A model generated the notes under the pieces. That model made no database searches, was not told the origin of the DNA, and worked only from the letters and a program-made list of their open reading frames with translations. Shown piece by piece: positions 4,043 to 31,593 of a DNA stretch of 44,216 nt. This DNA is from SAR86 cluster bacterium (GTDB lineage: Bacteria; Pseudomonadota; Gammaproteobacteria; Magnimaribacterales; D2472): positions 1 to 44,216 of the forward strand of contig JAQWXQ010000065.1 of assembly GCA_029254395.1 (NCBI GenBank), given 5' to 3'. How positions within the stretch are numbered: the first letter of the stretch is position 1; each line of letters begins with the position of its first letter. The translations under genes and the position numbers were made by a program.

Positions 4043-5305
4043 TTATAGTGACTTGTAAAAAGATAAGACTTCTTCATGTGAGACAGTCTCCTGACTTCTT
4101 AGTTCATCATCCAAATATTTAATTAAAATACTACCGCTCTCCAACTCACCATCACCAATAATAATTGCATGGCTAGCACCTATTTTGTTGGCTCTTCTTA
4201 ATTTTGATTTAAGACTGCCGCTAGATAAGTTAACATCTAGTGTGACGCTTTTATTTAGCGTTCTGAGTTGGTGTGCTATTTTAAATGCTTTTGGCTCTAA
4301 ATTGCTAGTTATAGTTATGAAAGATACAGTCTTCGTCTTATTTAAATCAATATTTGCTATATCTGCCAGCCTCTCAATACCAATTGCCAAGCCAATGGCG
4401 GGCAAATTTTTACCACCTAATTTTTCGGATAAGATATCATAGCGACCACCACCTAAAAATGAATCTTGAGCGCCTAAATTGGAAGAAGATGCCTCAAAGA
4501 CAAAACCGGAATAGTAATCAAGACCTCTTACTAAGGAGTAATCTATCTCGATATTGTTAAACTCAGAAAAAGTTTCTTTGATGTTATTTAAAAGCTGAAT
4601 ATTCTCTAATGGTAAATACTTTTTTAGCACAGGTCCATTTTTTAATATTTCTTGTGTTCTTTCATTTTTAGAATCTAGGACTTTTAATGGGTTTTTTTGC
4701 AGCCTTTCCCGCTCAGTTTCACTAAGTTCTTCTAAATAGGGCGTAAGATATGAAACAAGATCTTCACAGTATTTCTTTTTTGTGTCTGGATCACCCAAAT
4801 GATTAATTTTAATTTTTGCATCTTTAACATCAAGGTCTTTAATAATATTACAAATAAGAGATATCAATTCAAATTCTGAGCTTCCCTCTTCATAACCAAG
4901 GATCTCAACACCTGCTTGATTAAATTGTCTAAACCTACCTTTTTGTGGTCTTTCGTATCTCCACATAGGTCCTATGTACCAAAATTTATTAGTTAAGGTG
5001 TCTTGTTTCTTTTCTATCATTGATCTGATGACACCTGCAGTCCCCTCAGGCCGGAGGCTAATGCTTTTATCATTTCTATCAAAAAAGCTATATATTTCTT
5101 TGTTTACTATATCAGAGACATCTCCAGCAGATCTTTTAAACAAATCTGTCTCCTCTAAAGCTGGGGTACGTATTTCAGAAAAATTAAATGAGCTGAATGA
5201 TAATTTTAATAACTCTTCAACTTTAAAGATTTTTTCTGCTGATTGATGTTTGTCTGAATTTTTAAATAAATCTAACATGCCGCTTAAGGATTGAATTTTT
5301 TTCAT
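4043..5305 (-). CDS. hisS: histidine--tRNA ligase
   Basis: LRPEGTA, RYERPQKGRFRQF, LVRGLDYY, GGGRYD motifs. Start at ATG 5305 with AAGGAG Shine-Dalgarno upstream. Confidence 0.97.
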   Translation of the reverse strand: MKKIQSLSGMLDLFKNSDKHQSAEKIFKVEELLKLSFSSFNFSEIRTPALEETDLFKRSAGDVSDIVNKEIYSFFDRNDKSISLRPEGTAGVIRSMIEKKQDTLTNKFWYIGPMWRYERPQKGRFRQFNQAGVEILGYEEGSSEFELISLICNIIKDLDVKDAKIKINHLGDPDTKKKYCEDLVSYLTPYLEELSETERERLQKNPLKVLDSKNERTQEILKNGPVLKKYLPLENIQLLNNIKETFSEFNNIEIDYSLVRGLDYYSGFVFEASSSNLGAQDSFLGGGRYDILSEKLGGKNLPAIGLAIGIERLADIANIDLNKTKTVSFITITSNLEPKAFKIAHQLRTLNKSVTLDVNLSSGSLKSKLRRANKIGASHAIIIGDGELESGSILIKYLDDELRSQETVSHEEVLSFYKSL

Positions 5306-5306
5306 A

Positions 5307-6401
5307 TTAACTCCTTGCAATAATCTCAATATTTGATTTAGCTATTTTTTCTCTTACCTTTGACTCTAATTCATCAACTAAATTTTCGCTGCTAATTTTT
5401 TTATCAGGCTGCCCATCTACATACATAAGATTTTTTGGGCTTGCCCCAGTTAAGCCAATATCTGCTGCTTTGCTTTCTCCGGGCCCGTTAACATAACAGC
5501 CTATTACAGCAACTTCTATATCTTCTGTTATATCCTCAAAACGAGATTCGAGCTCATTAACAACCTCGATCACGTTAAAGTTTTGTCTAGAGCAGCTTGG
5601 ACAAGCAACAATTTTTACACCCCTGCTTCTTAAATTTAAACTCTTTAATATATCCCACCCAATTTTTATTTCATCAATAGGATCTGAAGCCAAAGAAATT
5701 CTTATGGTATCGCCGATCCCCTCGGACAGCAACATGCCAACGCCTATTGAAGATTTAACTGTGCCAGCCCTATAAGAACCAGCCTCAGTAATACCAAGAT
5801 GGAGTGGTTGAGCTATTTTTGTAGAGATATCTCTGTAAGCCTCTACTGTCATTTCGATATTCGAAGCCTTTAAGCTCATTTTGTAATTTGTAAAATTGTG
5901 CCTATCTAATATATCTACGTGTCGTAAAGCTGATTCTACTAGCGCACTTGAATTTGGTTCACCATATTTAACCTGTAAATCTTTTTCAAGAGAGCCTGCA
6001 TTAACTCCTACCCTAATTGGAACATTGTTATCTTTGGCAGCACTTATTACCTCTCTTATTCTCTGCTCTTTGCCAATATTGCCAGGATTAATCCTGAGAC
6101 AATCTGCAGTACTAGCTACTTCAAGTGCAATTTTATAATCAAAATGTATATCGGCAACAAGTGGTATTTCCACTTCTTTCTTTATTTTTTTAAATGCATT
6201 TGCTGCATCAAATGTTGGTACTGAAACACGAACTATATCTGCTCCTGCGAGTTGAAGGTCATTAATTTGCCCGATAGTTGCCTCAACATTGCATGTATCA
6301 GTATTAGTCATTGATTGAATAGATATGGGGTTATTACCGCCAACTTTAACATCACCAACGCTTATAACTTTTGTTTTTTTTCTTGTTATCCAATCAGTCA
6401 T
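5307..6401 (-). CDS. ispG: (E)-4-hydroxy-3-methylbut-2-enyl-diphosphate synthase
   Basis: [42 protein letters not shown] motifs. Confidence 0.98.
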
Positions 6402-16118: not shown

Positions 16119-17573
16119 ATGGAAATTAATAAATTAATAAAAATAAGATTGGGATGCTATCTTTTTATAGTAATCTTTATTAGCTCCTTTGGTTATTCAC
16201 AAGCTGATAATCAAATTAAGCTTCCAGAACTTGGGGATAGAGTCTCTGGAGCTGTGTCATCTTCGCAAGAAAAAGCAATAGGTGAAGCTTTTCTAAAGCA
16301 AGCATATGCCCAAGCACCCCTAATAAATGATTCATTAATTCAGGAATACACTGAACTTCTTGTATTTAGGCTTTCAGAAAAAAGCTACGTACAAGATAGG
16401 TACTTTAATGTGCTTTTAATTGACGATCCATCTTTAAATGCTTTTGCGGCACCTGGGAGTGTTATAGGGGTTAATGGAGGGTTATTCCTTGAAGCAGAAA
16501 ATGAAGGTCAATTTGCCTCAGTTATGGCTCATGAACTAGCCCATCTAAGCCAAAGACATTTTGCAAGAAACATACTTAGATCACAAGATACCAGCCTATC
16601 ATCAGCGCTTGTTTTGGTTTCATCCATAGCGATTGCTTTAATTACAAATCAGCCGCAAGCAATTATTGGTGGAAGTGCCTTCATGCAGCAAGAAAACCTA
16701 AGATATAGCAGACTTTTTGAAAGAGAGGCTGATAGAGTTGGATTTACTAATTTAGTGGCCTCTGGTTATGATCCATATTCAATGGGTGAAATGTTCGAGA
16801 ATATGAACAAAATGAAAAGATACTATGGCGAGGCTCCGCCTGAATTTCTGCTAACACACCCTGTGACTTCTTCAAGAGTAAGTGATGCTTTTAATGCGGC
16901 TGAAAATATTGATGTTAAAGAATCAAAAAAAGATAGTATTGATTATTCTTTCATCCGCTCTAGATTAAAGGTTTATTATGAGAAAATACCAGCCTCCTCA
17001 GTAAGCTACTTTAAAGACGCTTTCAAAAAATCAAACTTACCCTCAGATCAATACGGATTAGCACTTGCATTGAGTAAAAATAATGAATTTGAAGATAGCA
17101 TCCTTGTAATGGATGAGCTTATTAGTAAATTTCCAAAAAACTTAATACTTAATACATCAAGGGTGGAGATATACTTGAATGCTGGTTTCTACACAGAAGC
17201 AAATAGTTATGTCGATAAATTTCTATCAATCTCTCCTGGAAATTACCCACTTACAATTACAAAAGCAAAAATTTTGAATGCGACAGGGGCATATTTTGCA
17301 GCTGAAGAACTATTAAGGGGACAGCTTCTTAAAAGAAATGGTGATCCGTATTTATGGCTTTTGCTATCTGATATACAAAGAGATGGGAAAAATATTGTTG
17401 GTTATTATCAAAGTAAGGCTGAATATCATGTATTACTAGGTCAGTATGAGGAAGCTATAAGCCAGTTAGAATTTGCACTACAACTTACAAAAAATAACTT
17501 TCAAGTATCAGAGAGTGTCATGACTAAAATTATTGATATAAAAAATAAAATCAATAAATCTAGAGGTCTTTAA
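16119..17573 (+). CDS. bepA: M48 metalloprotease/TPR chaperone BepA (YfgC)
   Basis: LNAFAAPG, HELAH zinc motif, EREADR, FLLTHP, C-terminal TPRs, signal peptide. Confidence 0.9.
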   Translation: MEINKLIKIRLGCYLFIVIFISSFGYSQADNQIKLPELGDRVSGAVSSSQEKAIGEAFLKQAYAQAPLINDSLIQEYTELLVFRLSEKSYVQDRYFNVLLIDDPSLNAFAAPGSVIGVNGGLFLEAENEGQFASVMAHELAHLSQRHFARNILRSQDTSLSSALVLVSSIAIALITNQPQAIIGGSAFMQQENLRYSRLFEREADRVGFTNLVASGYDPYSMGEMFENMNKMKRYYGEAPPEFLLTHPVTSSRVSDAFNAAENIDVKESKKDSIDYSFIRSRLKVYYEKIPASSVSYFKDAFKKSNLPSDQYGLALALSKNNEFEDSILVMDELISKFPKNLILNTSRVEIYLNAGFYTEANSYVDKFLSISPGNYPLTITKAKILNATGAYFAAEELLRGQLLKRNGDPYLWLLLSDIQRDGKNIVGYYQSKAEYHVLLGQYEEAISQLEFALQLTKNNFQVSESVMTKIIDIKNKINKSRGL

Positions 17574-18825
17574 ATCTTTTCTGTTTCGTAATACTCCAAC
17601 CTAAGTATGAGTAGAGGATTGCAAATGGAATCGCGGCTATCGGCATAAATGTAATTGGAAGAAATATAGATTTACCAATGCCCATAAAAATACTTCCAGA
17701 AAGGTCGCCAAACCTAGTCATAAATGTATCGATAAATACTGTGGTTTTGTATCTGTCCTTCTTTTCAAGTTGGCTATATGCGATTTCTCTAGCAGGCTTA
17801 TTAAATCCATATTCAAACATTCTAAGAGAGGTTTGACATATAATAACAACTGCCACAGATGGGAATAAACCATAAAGAGAGAAGACCACTACAAATAAAA
17901 TACCATAAACTATTAGTATGAATTTAATTCCAAACTTTGAAATAACATAATAAGTTAAAGTTAGCTGCACTATTAAAGTAAGAGGGGCAACTATTTGCTC
18001 TATCAAAGCAAATAATCTTATTCTTTCAGGAGACAATTCAGAATAGTTTTCAATAATTGGTATTGCAGCTATCCACTGCACTGTCATAAGAAATGTAAAG
18101 GACCATGAATAGAGAGCAATATTTCTAATATCATCCTTAGTTAATATATTCTTGATGCTATCAATTGAACCTCCACCAACCTTAGCTGAAAGGGCTTCAA
18201 CTGAAAATGTTCTTACTATGTATGTTGCGAGGGCTAATGCCAGCAATAAGTAAAAAGATGCTGCGATCAAAAATAGCGCTATGCCGGTTTCTGTAAATGA
18301 ATTTGAGAGGGTGCTGGATGTTGTAGAACCCAGCATAGCGCCAACCGATCCCCCTGCTAAAATAAATCCATAGTATTTTCTAGATGAAGAATCTCTAAAC
18401 AAATTTATTACCAACACCCAAAAAATTGAAACTGTAAAAAATGAATATATATTGCTCCAAACATAAAATATTCTTCCAAGCCACAACCTTTCAGTCACCA
18501 TAGATTGAGACAAACTTGACGAGTACATATATAAAAGTAGTAAGTTAAAAATAAAGAAAGAGTAAGTGTAGAAAATAATTCTTATATAGTTGCCTCTAGA
18601 TGCCACCCAGGAATAAATAGGATTTACTAAAATCATTATTAAAGTAGTGCTTATTAAAAGAGGTATCAGCATTCCTTCGCCATAACTCTCTACAGCAAGC
18701 TCATTTCTTAAGGGCCTTAAAACATACCAAGAAGAAAGTACAAGGTAGAACAGAATACTTGAAAGTAAAGTCTTATTTTTTATTAGCAAATAAGGATTTA
18801 AAGTGTTGATAATATTGAACTTCAT
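17560..18825 (-). CDS. NTT/TLC (ATP:ADP antiporter, AAA family)-like MFS nucleotide transporter
   Basis: About 12 hydrophobic segments; YVLRPLRN, FYVW...SIFW, RKYYGFI.AGGSVG, NKPARE, RYK...IDTF..RFGD motifs typical of the Npt1/TLC family. Confidence 0.75.
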   Translation of the reverse strand: MKFNIINTLNPYLLIKNKTLLSSILFYLVLSSWYVLRPLRNELAVESYGEGMLIPLLISTTLIMILVNPIYSWVASRGNYIRIIFYTYSFFIFNLLLLYMYSSSLSQSMVTERLWLGRIFYVWSNIYSFFTVSIFWVLVINLFRDSSSRKYYGFILAGGSVGAMLGSTTSSTLSNSFTETGIALFLIAASFYLLLALALATYIVRTFSVEALSAKVGGGSIDSIKNILTKDDIRNIALYSWSFTFLMTVQWIAAIPIIENYSELSPERIRLFALIEQIVAPLTLIVQLTLTYYVISKFGIKFILIVYGILFVVVFSLYGLFPSVAVVIICQTSLRMFEYGFNKPAREIAYSQLEKKDRYKTTVFIDTFMTRFGDLSGSIFMGIGKSIFLPITFMPIAAIPFAILYSYLGWSITKQKRFKDL

Positions 18826-18942: not shown

Positions 18943-19593
18943 TTATTCCATATTTTTCAATAACTGCAAGGCCTGTGATGAAGCTGAGTTGTTTGGGTAC
19001 TCCCTAACTACAAACTTATACTTGTCAGTTGCCATATTTAAATCATTATTTTTAAAGTATATATCCCCTATTTTCTTATGTGCTAGTGGTACTCTGTAAT
19101 GATTTGGGTATGAGGAGATCAGATCTAAAAAATATTTTTTACTTACCTCAAGATTATTATTAATTAATGATATTTCACCAAGCCAAAAAAAGGCTAAAGG
19201 TGACTTTTGATCATTTGCAAAACTTTCAACAAAAAATTTAAATAGCTTGAATGCATCTTCATAATTCTGTTCTTCTAATGATTTTGTGGCAGCAGCATAA
19301 ACATCTTCTTCACTTTGAATATCGCTTACTCCTTTAAATCTTATGCTGCTATTTGCATTTATTGCATTACTTTCAGGTGCTTTATTATCAGCTTCGTTAA
19401 AGGTTTCGTTTATGAGTTTTTCTATTAAATGATTTTGGCTTTCAATTTGATTTCTTAATTGAGCAATCTCACTTTCAAGCTCTTGTATCTTTAGAAAAAG
19501 AATATCCGAAGCGTTACTTTTTTCATCAGCTAAGCTAGGGTAGGACGCAAATAGAACAGCCAAAGTTATAAAAGTATTTTTTGTAATTCTCAT
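18943..19593 (-). CDS. cpoB: Tol-Pal system protein CpoB (YbgF)
   Basis: Signal peptide, coiled coil, C-terminal TPRs (AFFWLGE, YPNH, YPNN); follows pal. Confidence 0.88.
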   Translation of the reverse strand: MRITKNTFITLAVLFASYPSLADEKSNASDILFLKIQELESEIAQLRNQIESQNHLIEKLINETFNEADNKAPESNAINANSSIRFKGVSDIQSEEDVYAAATKSLEEQNYEDAFKLFKFFVESFANDQKSPLAFFWLGEISLINNNLEVSKKYFLDLISSYPNHYRVPLAHKKIGDIYFKNNDLNMATDKYKFVVREYPNNSASSQALQLLKNME

Positions 19594-19600
19594 CTTTTTT

Positions 19601-20095
19601 CTAGTTAATCTCCGCCCTTCTATTTTTTGACCAACTTGCCTCGTTTGAACCTGTTACAAGAGGGTATTCTTCACCAAAGCTCTTCACAGTTACCCTATTA
19701 TCATTGATTCCATTTAACAATAAATAATCTTTTACAGCATCACCGCGTCTTTGGCCAAGGGCTAGATTATATTCACGAGTACCTCTCTCATCAGCATGAC
19801 CAGATACAGTGATAAGCATATCTGGGTTTTCATTCATTGCTCGCACAACACTTTTAAGAGTTTGTATTGACTTGGTAGAAAGGGTAAATTTATCGAAATC
19901 AAAATAAACTACCGCATTAGTAGTTATAGGTTTTTCGTCATATGAAACGACACTATCTTCTGCAACTGAAACTTCAACACTGCTTACAGTTGAATTGTAG
20001 ACAGATTCTTCTGTATTGTTTGTTGTGCTGCAAGATACTGCAAACATGAGGAATGAGACATAGAAAATATTTCTATTTTTAGATTGTATATACAT
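19601..20095 (-). CDS. pal: peptidoglycan-associated lipoprotein Pal
   Basis: Lipobox FAVSC, VYFDFDK, GHADERGTREYNLALGQRR, NRRAE. Confidence 0.97.
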   Translation of the reverse strand: MYIQSKNRNIFYVSFLMFAVSCSTTNNTEESVYNSTVSSVEVSVAEDSVVSYDEKPITTNAVVYFDFDKFTLSTKSIQTLKSVVRAMNENPDMLITVSGHADERGTREYNLALGQRRGDAVKDYLLLNGINDNRVTVKSFGEEYPLVTGSNEASWSKNRRAEIN

Positions 20096-20113: not shown

Positions 20114-21388
20114 TTATCTTAAATACCCCGACCAAGATGGCTCCCTAACCTCTCCAGAACTTGATGGCAGTCTGAATTTAGCACCGCTGAGGGTAACACC
20201 AGCAAGAAGCCCAACCTTATCTTCTTTAATTGCATAGACTATCACATTACCGTTAGGAGAAATACTTGGAGATTCATCTAAGCGAGATTCGGTTAGAGGT
20301 CTTGAAAAATTCTCATTAAAGTATTTAAGAGCAATCTTGAACTCTCCTTCGTTTCTTTGAACAAACACAATACCCTCATTGCTTGGAAGGTAAGATGCTT
20401 TAGCGTTATAGTTTCCATCAAAGGTTAGCCTTTTTGGCTTTGTATTAAATTTTAATAAATCTATTTCATAAAGCTGAGGCGATCCTGATCTTCCGGATGT
20501 GAATAATATTTTTTTACCATCTGGTGACCATGATGATTCAGTATCTATGGAATAATGATTTGTTAAACGTGTTAGATTTTTATTCTCCAAATTAAGAATG
20601 TATATTTCTGCATTTCCATCTTGATATAAAGTGAGAGATAAAAACTTTCCATCTGGAGAGAATGCTGGTGAGCTGATCTGATATTTATTTTTTACAGCAA
20701 CCTCCCTACTTCCAGTGGCAATGTTTTGAATAAATACTTTTGCCAATCCTGTCTCAAATGAGACATATGCTATATCTTTAGAGTCAGGACTCCATGATGG
20801 AGAAATAATTGCGCTGTTACTTTTAAGCAAAGTCTGCTCATTCATTCCATCGGCATCAGCTAGCATCAATTTATAAACCTTTGCAGATCCCGCAAGACCT
20901 TCGCTAACATAAAGCATTTTTGTTGATGAGACTCCTTTTAAACCTGTTATCTCTTCATAAATACCGTCGCTCACATAGTGTGCTAACTGTCTGGTTTTGT
21001 TAGGTATACCATAAATTTTTGAAGATCTTATTTTTTTTTCTTTAACAGAATCGTAGATATCATATGAAACAGTGATATTCATTTCATCTTTACTATCGAT
21101 TATCCCTTTTAAAATATAATCAACACCAAGAAGTCTATAATTTTTATAATTTAATTCTTCTTGATATGTCTCTTCTGCCAGGAGCTCGTCAGAGCTTAGT
21201 ACTGAAAACTCACCTGTCCTTTGTAAGTCAGCTTTTATAATTGAACTGATTTCATTTGAAATCAAGGCCTGGCCATCAAAATCATGAATAGCAATTCTAT
21301 AGGGATTGTCAGAACTTTCTGTAATTTCAAGAACAAGCTCTGCATTTAAATTTAAGAAAACAAAGAATAGATATAGGATTTTTTTCAT
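20114..21388 (-). CDS. tolB: Tol-Pal beta-propeller protein TolB
   Basis: SPSWSPD, AYVSFE, repeated PD40 motifs, EPSWS C-terminus. Confidence 0.95.
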   Translation of the reverse strand: MKKILYLFFVFLNLNAELVLEITESSDNPYRIAIHDFDGQALISNEISSIIKADLQRTGEFSVLSSDELLAEETYQEELNYKNYRLLGVDYILKGIIDSKDEMNITVSYDIYDSVKEKKIRSSKIYGIPNKTRQLAHYVSDGIYEEITGLKGVSSTKMLYVSEGLAGSAKVYKLMLADADGMNEQTLLKSNSAIISPSWSPDSKDIAYVSFETGLAKVFIQNIATGSREVAVKNKYQISSPAFSPDGKFLSLTLYQDGNAEIYILNLENKNLTRLTNHYSIDTESSWSPDGKKILFTSGRSGSPQLYEIDLLKFNTKPKRLTFDGNYNAKASYLPSNEGIVFVQRNEGEFKIALKYFNENFSRPLTESRLDESPSISPNGNVIVYAIKEDKVGLLAGVTLSGAKFRLPSSSGEVREPSWSGYLR

Positions 21389-22026
21389 GATGGGTTGAAA
21401 GTGAGCATTATATTTTTAAAATTTGACTGATACATTTTTGCATCCATTTTGCTAAAAAAATTAAAAGTTTCAACCCTCTTTACAGCCTTAATTGCTGAGT
21501 TATCGAACCTTATGTTGCCGCTACTTCTAAAAAGAGACACATTGATTATCCTTCCATTTTTATTTATCTGAATTCTAAGGTCGCAAACCAGGCCATCTTG
21601 AATATTTTTTGGTTTTAACCATGCGCTTTCAATAGTATCTATTATCATCAGACTAAATTTATCTGCATCATTAATTTTTTCGTTATTTAAGAAATTTTTT
21701 TCTTCGCTTATTAGCTTACTAAGCTCTGGAATTACATTTATAGCTGGCTCAAATTCTTTAAATTGATTGGTTTTAGGGGTTGGTATTTTTGAGGAAACAA
21801 TTTTTATTTCATTAAAGCTTTCTTGAGGTATAGGTTTTTCAATAGTTTTTTTCATTGGACTAATTTTTGCATCTTGCTCAAAAATTAAACTAACATCTAT
21901 TGGGTTATTTAGAACAGGTCTTGCTTTTTTTTCTGAATAGAAATAACCAACAAGAAAAAGTATCAGTGAAGCATGTATTAGAAAAGAGAATATTGAGGCT
22001 ATAGTGTAATTAGTATTAATTTGCAT
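21385..22026 (-). CDS. tolA: TolA (short form)
   Basis: N-terminal TM helix with SHLS-type S..IH..L, C-terminal TonB/TolA domain (SSGNIRFDNSAIKAV); lies between tolR and tolB. Confidence 0.85.
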   Translation of the reverse strand: MQINTNYTIASIFSFLIHASLILFLVGYFYSEKKARPVLNNPIDVSLIFEQDAKISPMKKTIEKPIPQESFNEIKIVSSKIPTPKTNQFKEFEPAINVIPELSKLISEEKNFLNNEKINDADKFSLMIIDTIESAWLKPKNIQDGLVCDLRIQINKNGRIINVSLFRSSGNIRFDNSAIKAVKRVETFNFFSKMDAKMYQSNFKNIMLTFNPS

Positions 22027-22438
22027 AGCCTGTTGTGACGATGCCTATTTTCTCTATTCCAACACTTTGAACAGCTGCCATAGCCTTAGCAACGCTATCA
22101 AAAGATACATTTTTATCACCTTTAAAGACAACTTCAATATCAGGATTTGCTGAAAAAATAATTAAAGACTTTCTTTTTAATTCATCCAGGTCTATGGGAA
22201 GTTGCTCTTCACCAATATTAATAAAGTATTCCCCGTTTTTATTAATAGACACTACAAGTGGTTCATTTTGAACAGACATTTTTGTGGTATCAGTTTGAGG
22301 CAAATTAACCTCGACACCTTGGATTAATAAAGGAGAGAGAACCATAAAAATAATCAATAAAACCAACATGACATCAATATATGGGACTACATTAATCTCA
22401 GCATTTAATTTTTTCTTTTTCCCTAATCTGTAAATCAT
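22016..22438 (-). CDS. tolR: TolR
   Basis: EINVVPYIDVMLVLLIIFMV, VNLP, GDK motifs. Confidence 0.96.
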   Translation of the reverse strand: MIYRLGKKKKLNAEINVVPYIDVMLVLLIIFMVLSPLLIQGVEVNLPQTDTTKMSVQNEPLVVSINKNGEYFINIGEEQLPIDLDELKRKSLIIFSANPDIEVVFKGDKNVSFDSVAKAMAAVQSVGIEKIGIVTTGYAN

Positions 22439-23109
22439 TTATTTTTCAAAGTTTGCTTATAAAAAATGCTAGCAAGTTCTTCAGAAAATATGACAGTTGA
22501 TTGTGAAATGCTTTCAAGCTCAGATGCAAATTTGTTGTACGCTAGGACTGCGGGTATGGCTGCAAATAAGCCCATTGCTGTTGCTACCAATGCCTCAGAT
22601 ATGCCAGGAGCAACTGCGTTTATTGTTGCTTGAGTAGCATCAGACAACCCCTGGAATGAGGTCATAATTCCCCAAACTGTTCCAAATAAACCAACATAAG
22701 GACTCACAGAACCAACATTAGCCAAAAATGATAGGTTTACATTCATCTGCTCCTCATCTGAGGCTATAGCGACTCTCATGGAGCGATTAATACCCTCTAA
22801 ATCTAATTCAGTTATCTCATTAGTTTTAGTAAGAGTATTAAATTCATCAAAAGCGCTTCTAAAAACATTCAAAGAGCCATAATTAATATTATTATCATTT
22901 GGTATTTCATTATAAAGTGAATGCAAATCTTTACCTGACCAGAATCTAGATAAAAAATCAGAGTTAATTTTTTTTATTTTTTTATAAAAATTATAGCGTT
23001 CAATTATAACTATCCATGTCAATATTGAAGTTAATAAAAGGGTTAACATGACTGATTTTACAACCGGTCCTGCCTCGAGAAATAAATTTAAAACAGAAAT
23101 TTCATTCAT
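22435..23109 (-). CDS. tolQ: TolQ
   Basis: SPYVGLFGTVWGIM, VAPGISEALVATAMGLFAAIPA. Confidence 0.97.
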   Translation of the reverse strand: MNEISVLNLFLEAGPVVKSVMLTLLLTSILTWIVIIERYNFYKKIKKINSDFLSRFWSGKDLHSLYNEIPNDNNINYGSLNVFRSAFDEFNTLTKTNEITELDLEGINRSMRVAIASDEEQMNVNLSFLANVGSVSPYVGLFGTVWGIMTSFQGLSDATQATINAVAPGISEALVATAMGLFAAIPAVLAYNKFASELESISQSTVIFSEELASIFYKQTLKNK

Positions 23110-23118
23110 AATAATTTT

Positions 23119-23529
23119 TTAACCAAAAAGTAATAATAAATCATTGTGAAACGGTTTTGGTTTATTTGTTTCCGAATTGATCAGACAAACTTCAACCTCT
23201 GCAGAGCAAAGAATTTTGTTTGAGTTGCTTTCTTTTGCTGTTTGTGAAAATGTTAATCTAGCATTTGAGTTTTTGCGAACCAATGAAGAAATGGTCAATG
23301 CATCTTCAATTCTTGCTGGTGAAATAAAATTAATTTCCATCCTACGAACCACAAATACTAATTGTTGATTTAGCAACTTTTCCTGTGAGATGCCATTGTC
23401 TATGAGGAATTCCGTTCTAGATCTCTCAAAAAATTTTAAATAGTTTGCATGATATACAAAACCCTGAAAGTCAGTATCTTCACAGTAAACTTTTAGGTAT
23501 AAATCCTTAGACTTGATATGTTTGCTCAT
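23119..23529 (-). CDS. ybgC: Tol-Pal-associated acyl-CoA thioesterase YbgC
   Basis: VYCEDTD..GFVYHANYLKFFERSRTE hotdog motif; precedes tolQ. Confidence 0.93.
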   Translation of the reverse strand: MSKHIKSKDLYLKVYCEDTDFQGFVYHANYLKFFERSRTEFLIDNGISQEKLLNQQLVFVVRRMEINFISPARIEDALTISSLVRKNSNARLTFSQTAKESNSNKILCSAEVEVCLINSETNKPKPFHNDLLLLFG

Positions 23530-23932
23530 GAAGCTCTATATCTTTTTGAAAAAGCTCTAACAAAATTTGTATAAAATCTGGCCAGAGTAAGTCAACGGTT
23601 ATTAAATGATTTTGAATATTTGGATTGATTGTTGATGCAAGTACTCTTACTTTTATAGGTCTTCTATTAAATTTGTAGATGAGTGCAGGTATTAGATCCT
23701 GTCCATCTGAAGCTCTAATTACTTGATCCCACCAATCCTGAGGTGGCTCTCCGCCGTCACCATATCTCTTACATTCTAGGCACCATCTTCCAAGTCTGAG
23801 ATCGGGGAGTTCTTTTGTTCTGGTTTGCTCTAATATTCTTTTAACAGGATTTGTTAAATTTAGCTCTTGGACTAATAAATTACCTATCTCTCTTTCAAAA
23901 TTTGCACCTTTAGCTCTTGAGTTAACTGGCAA
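23507..23932 (-). CDS. Hjc-like (archaeal/phage-type) PD-(D/E)xK Holliday junction resolvase, putative
   Basis: NSRAKGANFERE (E13), PD (D44), ECK (E53-x-K55), WWDQ, PALIYKFNR. TTG start 2 bp after the yebC stop; overlaps ybgC by 23 bp. Confidence 0.8.
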   Translation of the reverse strand: MPVNSRAKGANFEREIGNLLVQELNLTNPVKRILEQTRTKELPDLRLGRWCLECKRYGDGGEPPQDWWDQVIRASDGQDLIPALIYKFNRRPIKVRVLASTINPNIQNHLITVDLLWPDFIQILLELFQKDIELHEQTYQV

Positions 23933-23934
23933 AA

Positions 23935-24672
23935 TTATTCTCCTGGTTCAAAATTGTCAGGGAATTGAGCATTGGTATGGACTTCTTGCACATCATCTAG
24001 ATCATCCATGAAATCCATAATTTTTAAGATTTTTTCAGCCATTTCTTGATCTACCTCTATAAGAGTATCTGCTCGAAGTGTTGCTTCAGCATTTGATATT
24101 TCAATATCTTTAGATTTTAAAATATCATTTATATTGCTTAAATCGTTATGGGGGGTAATTACTTCAAAATAATCACCTTCATCAACTAAATCTTCTGCGC
24201 CTGCATCCAAAGCAATATCCATCAAATCATCTTCGGTAATTCCCTTGGCAACATGAATGATTCCAAGCTTATTAAATAAATAAGCTACAGAGCCATCGGT
24301 ACCAAGATTTCCACCAAATTTAGAAAAAGCATGTCTAACATCGGAGACAGTCCTGTTTCGATTGTCTGTCATCGTCTCCACAAGAATAGCTACGCCTCCA
24401 GGGCCGTAACCTTCAAATACTATTTCCTCTAAACTTCCTGTCTCACCAGTACCTGAACCTTTTTGAATTGCCCTTTTTATTGTGTCTTTTGGCATATTTG
24501 ATTGGTTGGCTTTTTCTAGTGCAAGCCGCAATCTTGGATTATCTTCAGGGTCAGGGCCGCCTTTAGCTGCTACCGTTATTTCTCTTATAACTTTAGTCCA
24601 TACTTTGGCTCTAGAAGCATCTTGTCTTGCTTTGCGATGTTTTATATTTGCCCATTTAGAATGTCCTGCCAT
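23935..24672 (-). CDS. yebC: YebC/PmpR family protein
   Basis: MAGHSKWANIKHRK, EGYGPGG, TDNRNRT, DLDDVQEVHTN. Confidence 0.98.
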   Translation of the reverse strand: MAGHSKWANIKHRKARQDASRAKVWTKVIREITVAAKGGPDPEDNPRLRLALEKANQSNMPKDTIKRAIQKGSGTGETGSLEEIVFEGYGPGGVAILVETMTDNRNRTVSDVRHAFSKFGGNLGTDGSVAYLFNKLGIIHVAKGITEDDLMDIALDAGAEDLVDEGDYFEVITPHNDLSNINDILKSKDIEISNAEATLRADTLIEVDQEMAEKILKIMDFMDDLDDVQEVHTNAQFPDNFEPGE

Positions 24673-26442
24673 TTAAACCTCTTCTATTACTGTAGATTGT
24701 ATCTTAAGCTCATCTAATTGAGCATTATCAACTTTGCTAGGTGCTTCTGTAAGCAGGCATGTTGCACTCTGTGTCTTAGGAAATGCAATCACATCTCTTA
24801 TATTTGATGTATTAGTTATAAGCATTACAAGCCTATCTAATCCAAAGGCAATGCCTCCATGAGGCGGGCAACCGGAAGACAAAGCATTTAGCAAAAATCC
24901 GAATTTATTATTGGCCTCTTCCTTGGTTATCTTTAATATATCAAAAACTGCTTTTTGCATATCTTCTTGATAAATTCGCAAGGATCCTCCTCCAACCTCA
25001 TAACCATTTAAAACAATATCGTATGCATACGCTATTGCATCTTCAGGCCGATCAAGTAACTCAACTGCTGAACATTTTGGCAAGGTAAATGGGTGATGAA
25101 GAGAAGTTAGGCTTCCTTGGCTGTTCCTTTCAAACATAGGAAAATTAACAACCCAACATGGAGCCCATTCAGAAGAATATAAATTCAGATCTTCTCCTAA
25201 TTTTTTAATTAGGCTACTCATAGATAAATTGACGACATTTTTAGGTCCAGCTCCAAAAAATACTAAATCGCCCTTCTCAAGACCAAGATTACTAATTATT
25301 CTTTCAACTGTTTGTTTATTTAAAAATTTAAGAATTGGAGACTGGAGACCATTTTCGCTACCATCGAGCTCATTAACCTTGATATATGCAAGACCCTTGG
25401 CCCCTAGTTTTGAAACATACTTTGTATATTCATCAATTTTTCCTCTACTAAGACTATTTCCACCAGGAATTTTTAAAGCAACTACTCGAGACTTCTCGTC
25501 CTGAGCTGGGCTTGAAAATACTTTAAACTCCTCGTCCATCACCAATTCAGAGATTTCTACCAGATGCAAAGGTATTCTTAAGTCTGGTTTATCACATCCA
25601 TATTTTTCTATCGAATCGTGCCAATCAATAACAGGAAATTTATCTAGTTTATGGTTGCAAAATTTTTCAACCAGCTCCCTGACCATTCCTTCAGCTAAAT
25701 CGATAATATAGTCCTGATCAATAAATGATGCCTCTATGTCTATCTGAGTAAATTCAGGCTGCCTATCTGCCCTTAAATCTTCATCTCTAAAACACCTGGC
25801 TACCTGGTAATACTTATCAAGCCCTCCCATCATTAGCATTTGCTTAAAAAGTTGAGGTGATTGAGGTAAAGCAAAGAAATTTCCAGGCTGAACTCTACTA
25901 GGAAGAATATAATCCCTTGCGCCTTCAGGAGTTGCCCTCGTTAAAATAGGTGTTTCAATCTCATTGAAATCTTTATCATCTAAATAATTTCTGATAGTAG
26001 ATGATATCTTCGATCTTGTAACGATCCTTTGATTCATTTCAGGTCTTCTTAAATCAAGAACTCTATTTTTCAATCTAACATCCTCGTTAACCTCTTGGTA
26101 ATCATCTAGAGGGAATACCGGAGTAACCGCTTTACTTAAAATTTTTATATGTTTAGCCTCTAACTCTATCTCACCAGTAACCATATTTGCATTAGATGTT
26201 CCTTCAAGTCTTTTATTTACATTTCCACTTATGGAAACTACAAACTCATTTCTTAATGTCTCAGCAATCGCAAAAGATTCTTTAGAATCAGGATTAAATA
26301 CGACTTGGCAAATACCTTTGATATCCCTTAGATCTAAAAAAATAACACCCCCATGATCTCTTCGCTTATGAACCCAGCCGCAAAGTGTTACTTCTTGTTC
26401 TAAATTTTTAGTAGTTATTTCACCACAATAATGTGATCTCAT
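24673..26442 (-). CDS. aspS: aspartate--tRNA ligase (probably non-discriminating Asp/Asn type)
   Basis: [53 protein letters not shown]; RRDHGG His signature. Confidence 0.98.
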
Positions 26443-30573: not shown

Positions 30574-31593
30574 TTATTTTGTATCTTTAGATTTTGCCTT
30601 TGATGCTATATAAGATGATCTTATTTCGCTAATAAGCTCGTCTCTAATTTTTGTATTTTCTTTAAGATATATGCTTGCTTTAACTTTGCCTTGCCCAATA
30701 GTCTCTCCATTTAACTTATAAAAGGCACCTGACTTATCTACTAAACCGAGCTTATGACCAAAATCAAGTATTTCTCCTTCTTGATTAATACCTAAGCCAT
30801 ACATTATTTGAAACTCAGCCTGTTTAAATGGAGGTGAAACTTTATTTTTTACGACTTTTACCCTAGTTTCATTACCCATAACCTCATCACCTTCTTTTAC
30901 TGATCCTATCCTTCTTATATCTAGACGAACAGACGAGTAAAATTTGAGAGCATTTCCACCAGTAGTAGTTTCTGGACTTCCAAACATCACACCAATTTTC
31001 ATTCTAATCTGGTTAATAAATACCACCGTGGCTCCAGATCTTTGTATGTTGCCGGTTATCTTTCTTAGAGCCTGAGACATTAATCTGGCTTGAAGTCCAA
31101 CGTGATGATCACCCATCTCTCCCTCTATTTCTGCTCTTGGAACTAAGGCTGCTACAGAGTCGATTATGACTAAGTCAACACTTTTAGATTTTACTAACAT
31201 GTCAGCAACTTCTAGCGCTTGTTCACCGGTATCTGGTTGTGATAACAACAGCTCATCCACATTGACTCCAAGTTTTTCAGCATATTGCGGATCTAAAGCA
31301 TGTTCTGCATCAATAAATGCACAAGTACCACCTGCTTTCTGACACTGAGCTATTATTTGAAGTGTTAAAGTTGTTTTACCAGAAGATTCTGGTCCGTATA
31401 TTTCAGTAACTCTTCCTTTTGGAATCCCGCCAATGCCAAGGGCAATGTCTAAACCTAATGATCCTGTTGAGATTGATGGTATATCTACAAGCTCTTTATC
31501 GCCCATCCTCATAACAGTTCCTTTCCCAAACTGACTGTCTATGTCAGCCAAAGTTTCCTTTAATGATTTTTTTGTGTCTTTTAATTTAGCCAT
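30574..31593 (-). CDS. recA: recombinase RecA
   Basis: [55 protein letters not shown]. Confidence 0.99.

Follow-up and report, generated by a model that had tools for sequence, protein, structure and literature searches.

The window considered here, by which we mean the whole stretch of 44,216 nucleotides formed by contig JAQWXQ010000065.1 of a SAR86 cluster bacterium, encodes between yebC and ybgC a nuclease of 141 amino acids (aa) and of the PD-(D/E)xK type, in the position where other Gammaproteobacteria keep ruvC, ruvA and ruvB. With a probability that we would put at roughly 70%, this open reading frame (ORF) is the gene for the Holliday-junction resolvase of the SAR86 cell, a candidate enzyme of Hjc type that the ancestor of the order would have captured from a phage and that would have become fixed in the former ruvC-ruvA-ruvB slot. 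An initial annotation of this DNA had already proposed that a PD-(D/E)xK enzyme displaced ruvCAB in place, a claim that is supported as far as sequence allows, with an enzyme from a mainly viral family. The source assembly of the window, referred to here as G000, is a metagenome-assembled genome (MAG) of 1.148 Mb in 145 contigs, with an estimated completeness of 90.9%.

The ruvCAB slot and the loss of RuvABC

The slot was defined by examining 12 kb around ruvC in five other Gammaproteobacteria. In four of the five, yebC is followed by a gap of 2.4-2.6 kb and then by ybgC-tolQ-tolR-(tolA)-tolB, and in G267 and G112 (loci L127 and L131) Pfam identifies the three ORFs of the gap as RuvC, RuvA and RuvB, which verifies in two genomes the Pseudomonas-like order yebC-ruvC-ruvA-ruvB-ybgC-tolQRAB on which the initial annotation had relied. 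Moreover, ruvC adjoins yebC in 5/6 shorter loci of other Gammaproteobacteria. The gap between yebC and ybgC in the window measures 0.43 kb and holds the 141-aa ORF alone, so that a single protein stands in the place of three, which in G267 add up to about 725 aa (RuvC 174 aa, RuvA 201 aa and RuvB 350 aa). Read from the sequence, the stop codon TAA of yebC (23935-23937) is separated by two bases from the TTG start of the ORF (23930-23932), whose end overlaps the ybgC gene, with its ATG at 23529, by 23 bases; both distances had been given before and are exact. The flanking genes described as intact (aspS, yebC, ybgC, tolQRAB, pal and cpoB) each have their Pfam matches, and a scan of part of the window ORFs, which took in all those up to 5 kb from the candidate in both directions, found housekeeping genes only at that distance, in agreement with the claim that no phage genes lie nearby.

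Neither the RuvC nor the RuvA_N model had a match in the G000 assembly, where the RuvB models gave only AAA+ cross-matches of about 29 bits to ORFs of 416-811 aa. We extended the search to an order-wide sample of 61 genomes, which covers four families and 19 genera and includes several single-contig genomes. RuvC (PF02075) was found in 0/61 of them, with model organism controls giving the expected matches, RuvB was above cut-off in 0/61, and RuvA in 0/61 as well, with one match of 19.8 bits below the cut-off. The reported absence of the three ruv genes thus holds for G000 and for the sampled order. In a class-wide sample, RuvC was present in 392 of 401 genomes, including those of endosymbionts of 0.3-0.4 Mb (388/397 if four unpublished genomes, G341, G183, G097 and G331, all with RuvC, are left out of the tally). 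The nine genomes lacking it are the order members sampled (4/4, G000 included), four fragmented assemblies of 180-580 contigs and one genome of 0.4 Mb. RuvABC is near-universal in Gammaproteobacteria, and its loss throughout the order of a free-living and abundant clade is unexpected, since RuvC is found in nearly all of the sampled genomes, even in those of tiny endosymbionts.

The distribution of the ORF mirrors this loss. A protein search recovered it in 58/61 genomes of the order, spread over 19 genera, at 43-99% identity. The three misses are assembly breaks (a contig ending 29 bases past yebC in G026, yebC cut by the contig end in G027 and yebC unassembled in G035), and therefore the gene is present wherever the locus is assembled. 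A survey across the clade with the window neighbours as tblastn queries showed the order aspS-yebC-ORF-(ybgC)-tolQRAB to be kept in 31/31 primary loci from four families. Altogether, ruvABC was found nowhere else in the genome and the ORF is never patchy among relatives, two points on which the initial annotation had been ready to be proved wrong. In family f4 (G039, G045 and G057; loci L045-L047), ybgC is missing and the ORF directly abuts tolQ. A scan of genome contigs for the ORF gave 64 loci, all from marine MAGs or single-cell genomes; among them are SCGC AAA168-P09, AAA076-P13 and TMED112, which we take to be SAR86 representatives, and the source name carried by close homologues is 'SAR86 cluster bacterium'. 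The copy of G040 (L038:5001-5411) contains an in-frame TAA, which could be a sequencing error or mark a pseudogene; it is the sole interrupted copy, the remaining 57/58 being intact.

Outside the order, a profile built from the SAR86 ORF matched 1/396 scored Gammaproteobacteria, and that genome has RuvC. The Pfam family of the ORF, PF24608, occurs in 8/400 other Pseudomonadota, each from another genus and with genomes of 2.9-4.9 Mb; RuvC is present in 5/5 of those tested, and in 8/8 no yebC, ybgC or tol gene lies within about 1.5 kb of the PF24608 gene. The presence of the ORF is the exact complement of the absence of RuvC.

Sequence evolution and RNA data concern the same gene. Against its two closest unsaturated relatives, the ORF shows pairwise ratios of nonsynonymous to synonymous substitution (dN/dS) of 0.021 (dS 0.29) and 0.047 (dS 0.75), and in the same comparisons its neighbours gave 0.010 and 0.020 (yebC), 0.047 and 0.045 (tolQ), and 0.116 and 0.043 (ybgC). 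In its evolution, the ORF resembles a core gene under strong purifying selection. Contigs from 4/4 RNA libraries (three studies) cover it and bridge the yebC-ORF junction in all four, and one RNA-library contig of 3,476 nt spans from ybgC to aspS with two differences from the window, a coverage that is a hint of transcription only.

Relationship to Hjc and probable viral origin

The ORF belongs to PF24608 (PDDEXK_15, 'phage putative PDDEXK endonuclease'), whose model matches residues 4-97 with 39.3 bits against a gathering cut-off of 27 (E 7.8e-10). An exhaustive search with hidden Markov models yielded 1,480 cluster representatives when the limit was set at E<=0.001, and 292 under the stricter limit of E<=1e-10. 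For comparison with remote families, two profiles were prepared, one from SAR86 sequences only (A1) and one from an alignment of 91 diverse family members (A2), of which 91/91 match PF24608. The motifs noted in the initial annotation are all present in the translation where they had been placed: KGANFERE at 8-15, P43-D44, E53-C54-K55, WWDQ at 67-70 and PALIYKFNR at 82-90. The putative catalytic residues E13, D44, E53 and K55 show no variation among 24 SAR86 sequences or among the 91 diverse members; in the latter alignment K8, G9 and R32 are invariant too, and R6, L34, Q36, W67, W68, Q70 and P82 are kept in at least 90% of the members. Among phage families, phrog_244 ('RusA-like Holliday junction resolvase') matches the ORF at 2.4e-12 and is matched by 91/91 members, while phrog_2002 ('Holliday junction resolvase') is matched by 10/91. 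By its Pfam content, 'RusA-like' is a misnomer for this family, because the ORF has no Pfam RusA match and no RusA was found in the genome.

A search of the ORF against the Pfam models of Hjc (PF01870), RusA (PF05866), RecU, Mrr_cat (PF04471) and RuvC (PF02075) gave no match at E<=1, so the membership in PF01870 contemplated in the initial annotation was not borne out, and from NCBIfam came nothing informative (PpsR, E 0.18). The narrow A1 profile found nothing meaningful among PDB sequences either (best match Bud20, E 0.78), and a look-up in the ESM Atlas gave no model of the protein. With the A2 profile as query and 177,635 distinct PDB sequences as targets, the top five matches were all archaeal Hjc: 1gef of P. 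furiosus (E 0.087), 4tkd, 1hh1 and 4tkk of S. solfataricus (0.11, 0.54 and 0.56) and 2wcz of A. fulgidus (0.41). Further down come 2eo0, which is among the PF01870 structures in PMC3424549, and 2wcw, so that Hjc-family chains make up 7/16 of the matches listed (E 0.087-1.9). Judged by these profile matches, seven Hjc chains aligned in one register among the 16 listed are not a chance pattern.

The alignment with 1gef, which covers residues 7-92, places E13, R14, R32, D44, E53, K55 and K87 of the ORF over E9, R10, R25, D33, E46, K48 and K81 of P. furiosus Hjc, precisely the residues described as essential in that enzyme (PMC10956419). The counterparts of all seven are invariant in the 24 SAR86 sequences. 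An independent Hjc profile was made from seven annotated resolvases of archaeal viruses, six from rudiviruses (SIRV2 ORF121 included) and one from halovirus HHTV-2, and hhalign paired it with A2 at E 1.5e-6 and a probability of 90.2%, in an alignment whose 58 columns cover the catalytic core. Judged by these alignments, the ORF protein is a remote homologue of Hjc.

In this regard, the likeness to the Hjc/Hjr enzymes of archaea and archaeal viruses (PF01870; 1GEF, 1HH1 and SIRV2 ORF121) concerns size (about 120-145 aa), the single PD-(D/E)xK domain, the order E...PD...ExK with near-identical spacing and the seven matched essential residues; as archaeal Hjc, the protein also appears to be the sole resolvase of its cell. 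Unlike Hjc, it is missed by the PF01870 model, and the likeness is established only to about residue 92. It also differs in its bacterial host, in having no PCNA partner and in belonging to a family found mainly in tailed bacteriophages. PF01870 members themselves are described in 'a handful of unrelated bacteria' (PMC3424549). That bacterial viruses carry such enzymes is indicated by Hjc_15-6 of the Thermus phage Tth15-6, a bacteriophage-encoded Hjc-like protein that cuts X-shaped DNA (PMC8805305). Both proteins are Hjc-like, but Hjc_15-6, as described there, matches the Pfam Hjc family and COG1591 and has the motif E-SD-EVK, whereas the SAR86 protein has E-PD-ECK, falls in another Pfam family and is encoded by a chromosomal core gene. 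Hjc_15-6 was not among the PDB matches listed for A2.

The family is mainly viral and sporadic in other bacteria. A tblastn search of 50,697 phage records found homologues of the ORF in six of them at 32-40% identity, five Roseobacter phages and phage C72C1. Homologues are part of phage modules for replication and recombination. In Roseobacter phage CRP-811, where the homologue is annotated as 'putative PDDEXK endonuclease', the adjacent genes encode an exonuclease-like PD-(D/E)XK protein, a helicase of the RepA family and SSB. The C72C1 homologue has close to it genes for a Sak-like annealing protein and a replication initiator. None of the six phages is T5-like, and the kinship with T5 D14-type resolvases put forward in the initial annotation is therefore rejected. 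Of the 599 pattern matches in IMG/VR, at least 527 encode a relative, and yebC, aspS, ybgC and tol genes were found in none of the 87 viral loci fetched.

Some copies connect SAR86 with its viruses in other ways. G017 carries a second PF24608 copy, 34% identical (L048:3488-8084, contig C4), beside a Toprim/AAA_25 primase-helicase of 628 aa and together with a 313-aa protein without a Pfam family. The viral contigs L134-L136 and L140 of IMG/VR hold copies 96-98% identical to it, and the module is probably a SAR86 phage or integrated element. The phage contig L141 from the same database (24.9 kb, with tail-fibre, holin and endonuclease genes) holds at 4983-5423 a copy that shares 60% identity with the chromosomal SAR86 protein from end to end, C-terminal part included; this copy suggests that SAR86 and its phages exchange genes.

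A tree of the family was computed with a quick IQ-TREE run from 149 proteins and 144 columns (184 input rows, from which those with internal stops or fewer than 100 aa were dropped and in which identical sequences were merged); it is unrooted and has many unresolved forks, and L054 and L195 sit on very long branches. One branch, with 97% support in the Shimodaira-Hasegawa-like approximate likelihood ratio test (SH-aLRT), separates 64 rows from the 82 chromosomal copies of SAR86, which are joined by three viral rows (L141, L143 and L149). The 64-row side comprises 58 viral contigs, the G017 mobile copy, four viral copies like it, and G410. Such a topology is compatible with a single origin of the chromosomal gene but does not prove it; it fits a capture that happened once, long ago, with SAR86 phages later exchanging copies now and then. 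As the tree is unrooted, we infer the direction of transfer, from phage to host, from the mainly viral and otherwise sporadic distribution of the family.

Recombination without RuvABC

RecA is encoded in the window, so that the strand exchange from which Holliday junctions arise is retained, and RecR is present in G000; XerD was found in 21/21 relatives and a second Xer paralogue in 20/21. The retention of RecA and Xer indicates that junctions form and crossovers occur, and therefore that something must cut them. Searches of G000 for RusA and for YraN/UPF0102 found neither, and the ORF is the only candidate in SAR86 with a predicted resolvase-like active site. RecB (TIGR00609) was found in 0/21 genomes, with a model that among the controls passed its cut-off only in E. 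coli and with AddAB not searched, and RecQ was not found in G000, the only genome searched for it. Because neither RecB nor RecQ was found, recombination in SAR86 is probably gap repair, tied to forks.

The initial annotation had looked to RecG or RadA for branch migration, which fails for G000. RadA was found in 0/61 genomes of the order. RecG is full-length in 40/61, and in none of the 21 genomes of genera g1, g2, g4, g5 and g7, the single-contig G007 and G031 included; g1 is the genus of G000 (0/7), and the other four are its sister genera. The best 'RecG' match in G000, an ORF of 1,103 aa with 356 bits, is read as Mfd. The subclade of G000 is thus without any of the three known junction translocases, RuvAB, RecG and RadA.

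The mechanism that we propose starts from four-way junctions, which would be made by RecA loaded via RecFOR. The enzyme, a small, probably homodimeric and Mg2+-dependent PD-(D/E)xK endonuclease of Hjc type, would recognise these junctions by their structure and nick two opposing strands, with E13, D44, E53 and K55 serving metal-dependent hydrolysis and R14, R32 and K87 contacting the DNA. Ligase would then seal the products, and XerCD would resolve the chromosome dimers derived from crossovers. RuvC needs a consensus site, which is delivered by branch migration driven by RuvAB. A resolvase without a cleavage consensus would need no branch migration to a site, and the RuvAB motor would for this reason become dispensable; the removal of the need for RuvAB may also explain why all three ruv genes were lost together, a joint loss that would save about 2 kb in a streamlined genome. 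In support of such a scheme, archaeal Hjc is described as lacking sequence specificity and as restoring repair to E. coli devoid of RuvC (PMC10956419). For the SAR86 protein itself, junction cleavage, dimer formation and lack of sequence preference are what we infer.

Compared with RuvABC, the proposed system has in common the slot yebC-[ ]-ybgC-tolQ and the same presumed end step of recombination. The fold is different, with RuvC described as a member of the RNase H/integrase superfamily (PMC3834835) and the ORF protein having PD-(D/E)xK motifs, and RuvC works together with the RuvAB motor. That recombination in SAR86 may end with a single phage-derived, sequence-independent, Hjc-like resolvase replacing RuvABC in place, in the subclade of G000 without a known branch-migration motor, is a tentative proposal, to which we give slightly less than even odds.

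Several observations weigh against the ORF being the resolvase of the cell. Its sequence is missed by the Pfam Hjc model even at E<=1, every single PDB match lies above E 0.05, and the hhalign match is limited to the N-terminal 58 columns and drops to E 0.041 and a probability of 1.3% when SIRV2 Hjc alone is used. Mrr_cat matches 6/91 family members (best E 2.2e-6) against 5/91 for Hjc (best E 2.4e-4), and sequence alone gives Hjc no precedence over Mrr as the nearer relative of the family in the PD-(D/E)xK clan. The PHROG names are annotations and not experiments, and among public names the protein goes as 'hypothetical' or, in the automatic names of UniRef and Atlas, as 'Restriction endonuclease type IV Mrr domain-containing'. 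Moreover, RuvX/YqgF, annotated by some as a resolvase, is present in G000, whose own absences, in a MAG that is 90.9% complete, weigh only together with those of its relatives. Finally, RNA-library contigs may include DNA and are no proof of a single transcript.

The alternative that best withstands the data, which we still regard as unlikely, is that the protein is a structure-specific nuclease for stalled or reversed forks, flaps, D-loops and Y-structures, and that recombination intermediates are handled otherwise, by synthesis-dependent strand annealing or by RuvX. Promiscuity towards branched DNA is ascribed to viral resolvases (PMC3864405), RuvX is at hand in G000, and the failure to find RecB in 21/21 genomes and RecQ in G000 makes a gap repair linked to forks probable. 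A reversed fork, however, is itself a four-way junction, so that a role at forks largely overlaps with that of a resolvase; SAR86 has kept XerD along with another Xer paralogue, implying crossovers; and the seven essential Hjc residues are conserved in the ORF. As for RuvX, it co-occurs with RuvC in control bacteria and is not distinctive of SAR86.

A little less probable still is an Mrr-like or other endonuclease of restriction, defence or repair, unrelated to recombination, that came to lie by chance beside yebC after a deletion of ruvCAB. The PD-(D/E)xK core is common to Mrr_cat enzymes and the ORF, and both the Mrr_cat matches of 6/91 members and the automatic names in public databases fit such an origin. 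Mrr enzymes carry a separate DNA-reading domain, for which a single domain of 141 aa leaves no room, and defence genes are typically patchy and fast-evolving, whereas the ORF is single-copy, has a core-gene distribution without partner genes, holds one fixed place, within a core operon, in four families and shows dN/dS values of 0.02-0.05. Its distribution, moreover, complements the absence of RuvC exactly. PADLOC assigned no defence family to the window protein and gave a weak match in 1/24 relatives, Mrr_cat has no match to the ORF itself at E<=1, and the 16 PDB matches listed for A2, the best of which are Hjc, include no restriction enzyme. A decaying phage remnant or a spurious, functionless frame, which the TTG start, the small size, the overlap with ybgC and the in-frame TAA of one relative (G040) might recall, is excluded for practical purposes by a frame uninterrupted in 57/58 of the genomes bearing it, by the same low dN/dS, by invariant catalytic residues, by an AGGAG 7 nt upstream of the start and by the RNA-library contigs that cover it.

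Operon, precedents and significance

The features of the window that bear on the candidate resolvase gene are collected in the table below.

Table 1. Candidate resolvase gene and surrounding features of the window, with the matches on which each name rests
Feature	Position	Strand	Basis and remarks
141-aa PD-(D/E)xK nuclease, candidate Hjc-like Holliday-junction resolvase	23507..23932	minus	TTG start; PF24608, phrog_244
AGGAG, Shine-Dalgarno-like (putative function)	23940..23944	minus	7 nt upstream of TTG, within last yebC codons
yebC (TACO1/YebC family)	23935..24672	minus	PF01709 1e-56, PF20772 1e-33
ybgC-like 4HBT acyl-CoA thioesterase	23119..23529	minus	PF13279 6e-14, PF03061 3.5e-11
tolQ	22435-23109	minus	Pfam MotA_ExbB; name from domain and gene order
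tolR	22016-22438	minus	Pfam ExbD; name from domain and gene order
tolA	21385-22026	minus	Pfam TolA/TonB_C; name from domain and gene order
tolB	20114-21388	minus	Pfam TolB_N+PD40; name from domain and gene order
pal	19601-20095	minus	Pfam OmpA; name from domain and gene order
cpoB-like TPR gene	18943-19593	minus	Pfam TPR_6; name from domain and gene order
aspS (aspartyl-tRNA synthetase), upstream of yebC	24673..26442	minus	PF00152 2.5e-116, plus GAD and OB-fold domains
recA	30574..31593	minus	PF00154 1.1e-141

Between positions 18800 and 26900, a promoter scan returned 21 promoter-like sites, fewer than the mean of 32.4 in shuffled sequence, and terminator-like sites occur at chance level, so that the scan carries no information on the limits of operons. 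Two further genes lie on the minus strand: an ORF of 421 aa (17560-18825) with many hydrophobic stretches and no Pfam family at E<=1e-5, and, just upstream of aspS, a 92-aa zinc-ribbon protein (PF09723; 26459-26737).

The replacement or suppression of RuvC by an unrelated and often phage-derived resolvase has precedents in RecU of Bacillota and in RusA of lambdoid prophages. RusA has a different fold and is a cryptic suppressor in E. coli. RecU is described as another PD-(D/E)xK enzyme (PMC3424549) that still works with RuvAB (PMC8583203). Unlike these two, the SAR86 ORF has no Pfam match to RecU or RusA. Already known, then, are the replacement of RuvC by RecU or RusA, Hjc in archaea and an Hjc-like enzyme in a Thermus phage. 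In the open literature searched, which did not extend to supplements or to papers outside open access, we found no report of the loss of ruv genes in SAR86, of a Holliday resolvase in this group or of PF24608. Three things appear to be new: the joint loss of RuvA, RuvB and RuvC from an entire and ecologically dominant order, the fixation of a phage nuclease of PF24608 exactly in the ruvCAB slot, and a subclade without a known branch-migration motor.

If our interpretation of the ORF as the SAR86 resolvase is true, a machine of three proteins would have been displaced non-orthologously and in place by one viral enzyme of 141 aa, and genome streamlining would here have proceeded via gene replacement rather than by simple loss. 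Resolvases of Hjc type would be extended from archaea and viruses to a housekeeping role in bacteria, and PF24608, a family labelled 'putative' that has at least 527 members on viral contigs, would receive a function; public annotations such as 'hypothetical' or 'restriction endonuclease' would be corrected accordingly. In this line, the subclade of G000 would represent a natural experiment, a free-living bacterium that does without any dedicated branch-migration translocase once its resolvase needs no cleavage consensus, and it would become testable, as a question of long standing, whether branch migration by RuvAB, RecG or RadA serves recombination itself or only the sequence need of RuvC. 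In SAR86, which ranks among the most abundant lineages of bacteria in the surface ocean, a viral gene would thus have turned into a core genome-maintenance gene of a whole order.

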